Positions 18,156-37,644 of a stretch of 64,000 bases of DNA are shown piece by piece. The notes below the pieces were generated by a model that was not told where the DNA came from, ran no database searches, and was given only the letters and a program-made list of their open reading frames with translations. A program made the translations under genes and the position numbers. Position 1 is the stretch's first letter, and every line of letters begins with the position of its first letter. The stretch is from positions 323,307 to 387,306 of the forward strand of contig CAWFCE010000001.1 of assembly GCA_963814275.1 (NCBI GenBank). The letters run 5' to 3'. Source of the stretch: Candidatus Parcubacteria bacterium (GTDB taxonomy: Bacteria; Patescibacteriota; Patescibacteriia; Patescibacteriales; UBA12075).

Positions 18156-18387
18156 CGTGCAGCGCGCGGCATGCTTCCCGTCATAAAAGGCAATTTAATT
18201 TTATAATGTATATTTATGATGATTATAATAGTCGGCGTAATCTTTGTCGCGTTAGCAATCGGAGCGATTGCAATGGGTGTGAGAGAGGACGCAAAAAAAG
18301 AGAAAAAGGAAAAGTAACGGCAGAATCCGGATGTTTAATTAAACAGCTATTAAGGGAAATATAAAGGAAGGGCTAGACTATATCAGC

Positions 18388-18415
18388 GTAGGTACGCGCC
18401 ATGGCGCGTACCTAC
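18388..18415. repeat. perfect 28-bp palindrome
   Basis: gtaggtacgcgcca|tggcgcgtacctac; a partial copy (acgcgccgtggcgcgtacctac) lies at 14153-14178. Confidence 0.85.
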
Positions 18416-18535
18416 AGACGTGGAAAAATTTTCAGTATGCTTTCTACTGATGGGTATTTTACGGATGGTATTGACAAGTTATGTGTTTCGTGTTAATATA
18501 TATATAATTAAAAACAACATAAAAAGGGGGATATT

Positions 18536-18718
18536 ATGACGAAATGTACATTGGCAGAAAATAACAATGGTGGGTTTAGCTTTTCGAAACCGATTATTCT
18601 GGACCAAGATGGCGTTCGGGAAGCAGCCCAGATGGACTATAACCAGGAAAAGGGGCTGTGTCCCCTGGACCGCAGCCAGATCCAGGACCTGATGGCGGCG
18701 GTCGAGGCGTCGTGTTGA
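18536..18718 (+). CDS. small hypothetical protein (60 aa)
   Basis: AAAGGGGG RBS and a strong downstream terminator. Confidence 0.55.
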   Translation: MTKCTLAENNNGGFSFSKPIILDQDGVREAAQMDYNQEKGLCPLDRSQIQDLMAAVEASC

Positions 18719-18746
18719 TCGGCGCCAACAATATAGACAATCATAG

Positions 18747-18784
18747 CGCCCCGTTGCGAACCATGCGGCGGGGCGATTTTTTTT
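18747..18784 (+). terminator. intrinsic terminator
   Basis: cgccccg/cggggcg stem followed by T8. Confidence 0.75.
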
Positions 18785-18847
18785 GTGATTATTTTGTTAA
18801 GAAGACATGTAAATATAAAAACTAAAGTTGTGCACATTTTTTATAAG

Positions 18848-19133
18848 AAAAAAAGGACTCTCGTTGAGAGTCCTAAAGGTAAAAAAGGTATCACGCCGTG
18901 ATGCTGGCGTCCGAAGCTTCGGCGATGTCCTTTGCCCGGGGCATTATAACTGATCCTGTAATCGATGTAGGACTACACTTATGGGCCTTAGCTGTCGGTC
19001 TGGGCCGGTATCGTTTAACAAAACGATATCGTAAAATTCACGAAATCCGCCCTTTAGCGCCGTTACCCTATTCGGGAATTGCCTCAAAATTGACGACAAT
19101 GCGTGTTCTTAGGACGCGTTCCCTTTTTTACTT
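18848..19133 (-). ncRNA. candidate structured sRNA, family unknown
   Basis: Minus-strand TTGACA(19162-19167)-16 nt-TGaTAATAT(19140-19145); GC-rich body with several hairpins; terminator ggactctc/gagagtcc (18855-18873) plus U7; no minus-strand ORF of 60 aa or more. Confidence 0.45.
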
Positions 19134-19394
19134 AATAATATATTATCATTTTATTTTATATTGTCAAATCGGATTGCCAATTTCGCGGATTACCCCAAAA
19201 GCGTAAACCGATGCGGATCCGCTTTTGTTATAAATAATTTTTTGGCAACAATTATCCTAATCCACGACAGACAAAATTCGCGCAGGATTTATTTCGGCTG
19301 TTACCTGGCATACCCCCGTATGGGGTATTTTTTTATTATTTTATAGTGTGTTAAAATTAAAAAAGCAAATAACCATTTATATTAAATAATCTAT

Positions 19395-36762: not shown

Positions 36763-36805
36763 CATTTATCTTGACATTAAATATCGGTTTTGATAATATT
36801 CATAT

Positions 36806-37074
36806 ACTTATGGGGCACGATTCCGGGAATGATGCATGGCGCCCAATTGAGGACCGGCGGTTTTTCGCCAGCCACAGGGACCCGGATGGACCTATACGCC
36901 GGCATATCGGTTCCATTGTAGTCACACCGGAACCGACAAATATCCTCGCGCAGGGGTTTTTCATATTCGTCATACCGGGAGACGAGATTATCGTCCCGGA
37001 ATCGTGTTCCACCAATTCCCCTTTTTTGTTCATTGTTAAACCCCCTGACAGCGTTACTGTCAGGGGTCTTTTTT
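36806..37074 (+). ncRNA. candidate structured sRNA (rod-like, 6S-like or other), family unknown
   Basis: TTGACA(36771-36776)-17 nt-TGaTAATAT(36794-36799); 17-bp closing helix 36812-36828/36994-37010; internal hairpins; terminator 37042-37066 followed by a T run. Confidence 0.5.
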
Positions 37075-37182
37075 ATCCCAAATAATTCCTGATATTTAAT
37101 TTTGAAATAATAATTAGTTAATTGCGTACTAATAAATAGAAAGGAAGTTTTCCCTAAAAAAATTATTAATGAAACCACAAGT

Positions 37183-37644
37183 ATGGATTATTTTCAGAAA
37201 TACAAAAAAGCGGCGATCAGTATCGCTATCCTGACGCTTATGATGACCGCCGGCCTCAGTTCGGCCTATGCCGCGACCGACAGCCAGGGGTTCACGCCAA
37301 ATTCATTCAAGACCGATACGCAGATCAATCTCTTGAATACCCTGGAGGCAGGGGATTATGAACAATGGAAGCAGGCAGTGGGGCATTATTCCGGCCTTTC
37401 CGGCGTTATTGCCAAGGATGATTTTCTGGAATTCATCCGGGCCCGGAAATTTGCACGCGAGGGCCGCTATGACGAGTCGCTGGCCATGAGCCAGGCTTTG
37501 GGCGACAGATTGGCCGCAAAACTAGTCGATTACCTCAAAACCGACAAGCGCCGTCCGAACAGCCAGACTTGGGATAAGGTTCTGGGCGCCCTGCAGGCCG
37601 GAGATTTTCAGGCGTTAGAAACGATATTGGCTAACACAAAATAA
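37183..37644 (+). CDS. secreted hypothetical protein (153 aa)
   Basis: Signal peptide ending in AYA|AT. Confidence 0.5.
   Translation: MDYFQKYKKAAISIAILTLMMTAGLSSAYAATDSQGFTPNSFKTDTQINLLNTLEAGDYEQWKQAVGHYSGLSGVIAKDDFLEFIRARKFAREGRYDESLAMSQALGDRLAAKLVDYLKTDKRRPNSQTWDKVLGALQAGDFQALETILANTK

Follow-up and report, generated by a model that had tools for sequence, protein, structure and literature searches.

A promoter and a terminator that enclose some 285 nt of minus-strand DNA raise the question of what kind of gene lies between them when neither strand carries a convincing reading frame. The locus belongs to the 64-kb stretch of patescibacterial DNA analysed here (the window), and a first-pass annotation had read it as a likely sRNA. 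That reading stands in so far as the unit, which we call RNA A, looks like a stand-alone minus-strand ncRNA gene with no conserved ORF; it does not stand in treating the RNA as anonymous, the 3' two-thirds being homologous to helices H40-H41-H45 of 23S rRNA, a class omitted from the by-eye comparison with known RNAs.

The unit spans ~285 nt between promoter and terminator (19133-18848; Table 1). The TTGACA hexamer, the 16-nt spacer and the TGaTAATAT element were all found where the first-pass annotation had placed them on the minus strand, with the TG of the extended -10 lying inside the spacer (19148-19147), a match of 12/12 plus TG, and a predicted transcription start near 19133. The hexamers and TGn extension are, as had been claimed, common to RNA A and the promoter at 36771. 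The pattern TTGACA-N12-15-TGNTAWWAT was found three times in the 64 kb, where shuffled sequences predict 0.02 occurrences, and every copy is intergenic (18471 on the plus strand, RNA A on the minus strand, and 36771 on the plus strand). The canonical terminator described ~285 nt downstream is present as a 9-bp hairpin with U7, and the impression of a GC-rich island was borne out by a G+C content of 49% in the body versus 33-41% in the flanks. The hairpins picked out by eye, namely UAUCGUUU/AAACGAUA, AUCAC-GGC-GUGAU and the palindrome CCGAAGCUUCGG, are likewise there. RNA A folds better than shuffled sequences on the minus strand (z = -3.4) and on the plus strand (z = -4.5), so that folding energy alone cannot pick the strand; the assignment to the minus strand rests on three features that agree, namely promoter, terminator and the sense of the rRNA homology. 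Taken from these signals, the locus looks like a stand-alone ncRNA gene of about 250-285 nt with a presumably transcribed and stable product.

Table 1. Features of RNA A and of its transcription signals, in the direction of transcription; coordinates are window positions.
Feature	Positions	Strand	Description
Sigma-70-type promoter	19140..19167	-	perfect TTGACA-16-TGnTAATAT
-35 element TTGACA	19167-19162	-	followed by the 16-nt spacer
Extended -10 element TGaTAATAT	19148-19140	-	TAATAT at 19145-19140
P1 5' strand GUAAAAAAGG	19122..19131	-	pairs with 18888-18879; pairing probability >0.8 in the ensemble; inverted repeat
5' domain	19056..19121	-	hairpins AUUGUC.GUC...GAGGCAAU and CCC-GAAUA-GGG; predicted fold
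AAAGGG(C)	19049..19055	-	counterpart of 23S linker and H40 5' strand (consensus gAgAGGG) by the Rfam LSU alignment
H40-loop insertion	19005..19048	-	~45 nt replacing a 6-nt loop (6 model positions versus 45 nt)
H40 3' strand CCC, junction AGA and H41 5' strand CCGACAGCUAAGGCCCAUAAGUGUaGUCC	18970..19004	-	28 nt 86% identical to E. coli
AGA junction	19001-18999	-	intact; CCC-AGA-CCG kept
H42-H44 stump UACAUCGAUUA	18948..18969	-	aligns weakly to conserved UaAGUGgaaAA
AUAAUGCCCCGGGCAAA	18931..18947	-	corresponds to AaAAUguaaCGGGgcUcAA, a conserved stretch left unpaired in 23S; mostly kept
H41 3' strand GGACAUCGCCGAAGCUUCGG	18911..18930	-	includes the ccgaag/cttcgg palindrome
H45-like hairpin ACGCC-AGCAUCAC-GGCGU	18893-18910	-	5 bp
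Linker GAUA	18889-18892	-	in place of 23S GGUA
P1 3' strand CCUUUUUUAC	18879..18888	-	10-bp A/U-rich stem joining both ends
Intrinsic terminator	18847..18874	-	AGGACUCUC-AAC-GAGAGUCCU at 18874-18854, 9 bp, 3-nt loop, then U7

The locus lies within a 1.2-kb lineage-specific island of orphan sequences. Convergent with RNA A is a gene for an orphan acidic 60-aa protein (unit 18471-18785, plus strand; ORF 18536-18718), which has a perfect promoter, a strong Shine-Dalgarno sequence and a 12-bp terminator, shares ~79% identity with RNA A in the -10 and initial transcribed region, and encodes a product with no homologue in 5.8 billion proteins. Also on the plus strand (18200-18415), a 32-aa ORF at 18216-18317 with a hydrophobic N-terminus and a Lys/Glu-rich tail starts ~8 nt after a TATAAT box, is possibly leaderless and resembles a type I toxin; a perfect 28-bp palindrome (18388-18415) comes after it. 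On the other side of RNA A (19170-19335, plus strand) a terminator-like hairpin at 19310-19328 followed by T7 is found ~60 nt upstream of the start codon of a NUDIX gene (19395), for which it may be a leader or attenuator, and nothing coding-like is seen between this hairpin and the RNA A promoter. The third perfect promoter (TTGACA-17-TGaTAATAT) drives an ORF-less plus-strand unit of ~270 nt at 36771-37076 with an 18-bp closing stem and a terminator at 37042-37066 (MFE -103.9 kcal/mol, z = -4.5). This unit showed no Rfam match, no rRNA similarity, no likeness to RNA A and no relative in the 80 loci from candidate phyla radiation (CPR) genomes described below, and it may serve the gene at 37183 as a leader or represent one more orphan sRNA.

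Two features of the RNA A ends should also be recorded. The A-rich 5' end (19122-19134) can pair either with its P1 partner (18879-18888) or with the U-tail of the terminator (18844-18856), and the 3' end carries two hairpin-plus-U-run modules which form a 22-nt direct repeat with 73% identity, an arrangement that suggests tandem terminators or alternative end pairings.

Could the unit simply be the mRNA of a small protein? In agreement with the earlier claim that the minus strand holds no ORF of 60 aa or more, the longest one in RNA A has 51 aa; it begins with TTG, lacks a Shine-Dalgarno sequence, gave nothing in a Pfam search and, when compared with 1.84 billion representatives, matched one repeat protein at chance level. 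A 17-aa ATG ORF on the same strand has AGGA 9 nt upstream. The 102-aa plus-strand ORF described as having no RBS does exist and does lack a Shine-Dalgarno sequence; public annotation calls it as a gene (101 aa), and it extends through the promoter of RNA A and has no homologue in 5.8 billion proteins. The annotated plus-strand frame and the AGGA of the 17-aa ORF are what a coding role has in its favour; against this, the 102-aa ORF has no homologue and the 51-aa ORF no more than a chance match, Pfam gave nothing, Shine-Dalgarno sequences are lacking and the longest frame runs through a promoter, all of which makes such a role highly improbable. A conserved small protein on either strand, which the first-pass annotation had named as evidence against an sRNA, was found neither in the protein collections nor in Pfam.

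The established ncRNA classes gave no better account. Signatures of RNase P RNA, SRP RNA and tmRNA had been reported missing on inspection, and neither the Rfam models nor ARAGORN returned a match for these or, in the family-model search, for 6S RNA; the conserved motifs of RNase P, SRP and 6S, compared by eye, had no support either. A CsrB-type RNA was set aside on the count of GGA motifs (6 seen, where a rough calculation by hand predicts about 4.5). ARAGORN detected no tRNA or tmRNA anywhere in the window.

The kinship of RNA A with rRNA emerges from several comparisons. Searches with nhmmer and blastn of 80 CPR loci (874 kb), gathered via a neighbouring 497-aa protein, gave only two matches, which are collinear, on the same strand and in one locus (L086), and the stretch matched there is a real 23S rRNA gene. 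The segment CCCAGACCGACAGCUAAGGCCCAUAAGU of RNA A is 86% identical over 28 nt to positions 987-1014 of E. coli 23S rRNA, and GCCGAAGCUUCGG aligns with 23S ACCGAAGCUGCGG. We then built a covariance model, R1, from ten real 23S sequences, spanning H39 to H45 but omitting the H42-44 arm (145 positions, 38 pairs); these came from a Falkowbacteria MAG, from E. coli and from eight plasmid-borne rrl genes of six phyla, and RNA A was excluded. RNA A did guide where the arm was cut, though not which sequences entered the model. The 23S sequence of a Monoglobus pectinilyticus plasmid record (L096) was kept out of the alignment as it has an insertion of ~100 nt in H45, a helix which is a known hotspot for intervening sequences. 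Over both strands of the whole window R1 has one match, at 19034-18883 on the minus strand and over the full model length (31.4 bits, E=1.6e-8). Over the 874 kb of CPR loci it found only true 23S, all else scoring at most 12 bits; a 10.5-bit match in locus L076 was dismissed as noise, lying inside a purL-like coding region.

The Rfam search that the first-pass annotation had recommended gives no match to RNA A at gathering score, and yet LSU_rRNA_bacteria (RF02541) surfaces below threshold when ~185-260 nt are submitted. With the 185-nt core as input it is the only family returned (19.5 bits, well below the Rfam gathering threshold of 50 bits; E=2.3e-4), the match covering model positions 1009-1230, that is H40, H41 and H45 (about 976-1190 in E. 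coli). With 259 nt it is the only significant match (E=3.2e-4), GlsR14 being also listed at E=5. The match appears only with inputs of up to 260 nt (RNA A, 18876-19134) and is absent with 851 nt (E<=10) or with the whole 64-kb window (gathering score), since the speed filters remove it. No other rRNA-like sequence was found in the window, in the flanks or elsewhere. We therefore regard it as well supported, on comparative sequence grounds, that the 3' two-thirds of RNA A represent a miniaturised paralogue of H40-H41-H45 from domain II of 23S rRNA. This homology speaks for RNA A being a real structured RNA or the remnant of one, and against a chance promoter-terminator pair.

The helix map derived from the Rfam alignment allows the two molecules to be compared part by part. 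In 23S rRNA the order is H39; H40 (GGG-aAAcAg-CCC); AGA; the 5' strand of H41 with its UAA loop; H42-44; a conserved unpaired segment; the 3' strand of H41 with GAA; H45; GGUA; and the 3' strand of H36. RNA A is collinear with it through the linker-GGG, CCC-AGA, the H41 5' strand with UAA, AAUG..CGGG..AAG, the H41 3' strand (..CCGAAGC..CGG), the H45 hairpin and G.UA. H41 is the best preserved element (18998-18970 with 18930-18911), as all 17 of its 17 pairs are standard and the UAA/GAA internal loop is retained; one pairing is GGC/GCC where most 23S have GGU/ACC, the same variant being found in a cyanobacterial 23S. The 5' strand of H40 pairs with 19004-19002 in the unconstrained MFE structure, and the insertion that replaces the H40 loop lengthens the stem and brings two perfect hairpins, UCGUGA-AUU-UUACGA and UAUCGUUU-UGUU-AAACGAUA. 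Where the model has 96 positions for the GTPase-centre arm H42-44, RNA A has 11 nt (18958-18948), and the A-site finger H38 is absent. Conservation differs from element to element in the manner of a mosaic: RNA A retains the H40/H41 junction as well as the UAA/GAA loop, UAAGUGGAAAA is mostly lost together with the H39 and H40 loops, H42-44 is gone, and 3 of the 8 model pairs of H45 are non-standard. The unconstrained MFE structure already includes P1, H40, basal H41 and H45, and a 23S-like fold made of standard pairs only lies 3.4 kcal/mol above it. P1 closes the subdomain in the place of 23S H36, a correspondence of position only and not of sequence. Comparison of the 66-nt 5' domain with 23S and 16S gave no match, nor did a search of Rfam at E<=10.

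Unlike bacterial 23S rRNA, which is 2.9 kb long and transcribed in the rRNA operon, RNA A has ~285 nt, lies outside an operon under its own promoter and terminator, and is without the complete six domains and the GTPase centre H42-44. Alternatively, the 23S rRNA of this organism might consist of several pieces, RNA A being one that reaches the ribosome in trans; the sequence and structure of RNA A, which fit a defined rRNA subdomain, would agree with this. Such a piece could however hardly do without H42-44, which must branch from H41, or without the conserved tertiary-contact segments that are lost here, and the self-closure by P1 offers no strands for intermolecular pairing; moreover, the 64 kb contain no further rRNA pieces and the 23S of one related CPR genome is contiguous through the H40-H45 region. 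We consider a split rRNA to be a very remote prospect.

The main rival to the reading that we prefer, in which RNA A is a mimic acting in trans, is a decaying 23S fragment, either duplicated or horizontally acquired, which lost H38 and H42-44 by deletion and whose promoter and terminator arose by chance or are remnants of AT-rich intergenic sequence. RNA A shares with partial rRNA gene copies and pseudogenes the state of an rRNA-derived fragment outside the rRNA operon, and decay would explain why it is confined to a single genome inside the orphan island, why conserved segments such as UAAGUGGAAAA and the H39 and H40 loops are lost and why three H45 pairs are mismatched. Fragments of this kind normally show uniform decay and have no dedicated consensus promoter, terminator or end-closing stem. 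RNA A, in contrast, has all three of these: its perfect promoter, of a type so rarely expected by chance, sits exactly at the 5' end of P1 and its terminator just past the 3' strand of P1. No rRNA-like DNA extends outside the unit, the H42-44 arm is cleanly excised with all H41 pairs retained, and a G+C content near 49% amid 33-41% is accompanied by inserted hairpins that are perfect. A relic is on balance unlikely.

Orthologues of RNA A, whose absence is also in line with a relic, were sought in genome and metagenome contigs, viral contigs, phages, plasmids and the 80 CPR loci, and none was found. Relatives at the DNA level were searched for in the contig collections with ORF translations used as spaced seeds, which gave nothing in genome contigs, nothing in metagenome contigs in two frames, and one match in viral contigs that was rejected as chance; blastn against phages and plasmids returned noise only. 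Within the window there is no paralogue, and tblastx against the rest of it revealed no decayed copy. Pattern scans of viral contigs for other H41 mimics with a short arm found none, while the control pattern recovered the RNA A locus. In the Logan data, which provide another assembly of this organism, RNA A is free of variants. Neighbouring proteins put the contig among the Patescibacteria (CPR), near Parcubacteria and Moranbacteria. The lineage is without close relatives in the databases, as the best NUDIX homologue is 57% identical and the MetRS forms a singleton cluster at 90%, and synteny around the neighbouring NUDIX gene is not kept, the neighbourhoods of its best homologues being different. 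The first-pass annotation had held that a lack of conservation outside this genome would speak against an sRNA; this lack is formally the case for orthologues, the homology to rRNA being conservation of a different sort. As there is one genome with neither orthologue nor covariation, selection on RNA A cannot be demonstrated, and its intact helices may be inherited from a recent 23S copy.

Which ligand might a free H40/H41 junction have? In 23S rRNA the H40-H41 junction is the site to which L20 attaches by its C-terminal globular domain (PMC1865079, PMC1888825), and the L20 leaders of E. coli, Bacillus and Deltaproteobacteria imitate this junction (PMC1865079, PMC1888825, PMC7247131); H41, uL13, bL20 and bL21 make up one lobe of the 50S subunit (bioRxiv 10.1101/2022.03.10.483802). 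Our main reading, held tentatively with a probability of about 0.42, is that RNA A is a trans-acting rRNA mimic which binds bL20 and perhaps uL13 and bL21. Free bL20, and possibly uL13 and bL21 as well, would find in RNA A an intact H40/H41 junction, and by this binding RNA A would titrate or buffer these early-assembly proteins; P1, by joining the 5' and 3' ends, would make the RNA a closed and self-contained module. Molecular mimicry of the Nomura type would in this way have left the mRNA leader and become the business of an independent sRNA. The retention of H40/H41, the loss of the parts that serve ribosome function, and the gain of P1, promoter and terminator find their most economical explanation in such a trans-acting mimic. 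With the H40 hexaloop replaced, on the other hand, the L20 site might be impaired instead of kept. Genes for r-proteins were not found in the 64-kb window by tblastn with L20, L35, IF3, L13 and L21 as probes.

Like the L20 leaders, namely the E. coli rpmI-rplT operator and the Firmicutes infC leader (RF00558), RNA A imitates the H40/H41 junction, of which it retains GGG...CCC-AGA-CCG and the basal H41 pairs, and like the Bacillus leader it is ordered as promoter, mimic and intrinsic terminator. The leaders are cis-acting elements placed ahead of infC-rpmI-rplT, and what they copy is a few nucleotides set in another scaffold, whereas RNA A has no same-strand gene downstream and shows extended primary-sequence homology to 23S rRNA; none of the r-leader families, including RF00558, matches it at E<=10. 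An ordinary sRNA acting by base-pairing or otherwise, or an orphaned r-protein leader or attenuator, to whose role the rRNA ancestry would be irrelevant, is an explanation to which we give little credence: its layout of promoter, structured RNA and terminator does recall the Bacillus infC (L20) attenuator (PMC1865079), and the 5' A-run has two alternative U-rich partners, but the lack of a downstream gene, of a match to the Rfam L20, L13 and L21 leaders and of target complementarity within the island all count against it.

The same 23S homology would fit a decoy or antidote for some other partner, be it an rRNA-targeting toxin, a nuclease, a modification enzyme or an assembly factor. The adjacent 60-aa protein is a possible candidate, given that its gene is convergent, likewise an orphan, and has a near-identical promoter and initial transcribed region. 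This idea is purely contextual, though, the protein being acidic and without homologue or domain, and we know of no toxin that targets H40-H41; such a partner seems improbable to us.

In its logic the trans-acting mimic of r-protein sites that we favour would resemble 6S RNA, which mimics open promoter DNA, and CsrB/RsmZ, which mimic mRNA leaders: the proposed RNA would likewise be stable, stand-alone and highly expressed, and would imitate the nucleic acid that an abundant protein naturally binds. RNA A differs from these RNAs in ligand and fold and matches them neither in sequence nor in structure, and sequestration by it is only a proposal. No description of a bacterial stand-alone sRNA that mimics a 23S domain was found in the literature; a trans-acting r-protein decoy sRNA was not found there either, and no example is known to us. 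Taken to its full extent, the proposal would make RNA A a highly expressed, free-standing miniature of a 23S subdomain that acts in trans on bL20, uL13 and bL21 as their decoy or holding platform, couples r-protein availability or 50S assembly to its own expression in a CPR bacterium of reduced genome, and represents a new class of regulatory RNA; in this form it is possible, if doubtful.

The imitation of rRNA by r-protein binding sites is a classic principle since Nomura, and to our knowledge it has been seen only in cis-acting mRNA leaders that copy few nucleotides. RNA A would extend it in three respects, as a gene that stands alone and has a consensus promoter and a terminator to itself, as a copy that takes in about 110-170 nt from an assembly subdomain of 23S, and as one from which the functional arms have been neatly removed; judged from sequence, it may be a case of rRNA mimicry in trans by direct descent from rRNA, represented by a singleton in one genome. 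Since the homology to RF02541 is seen only with short input, short rRNA-derived elements may escape routine whole-genome Rfam scans. Should RNA A be functional, it would mean that an rRNA domain, once duplicated, can be exapted to regulate or to act as a decoy in trans, and it would provide a naturally minimised H40-H41-H45 module for binding studies of bL20, uL13 and bL21. It would then also be among the first candidate regulatory sRNAs in Patescibacteria.
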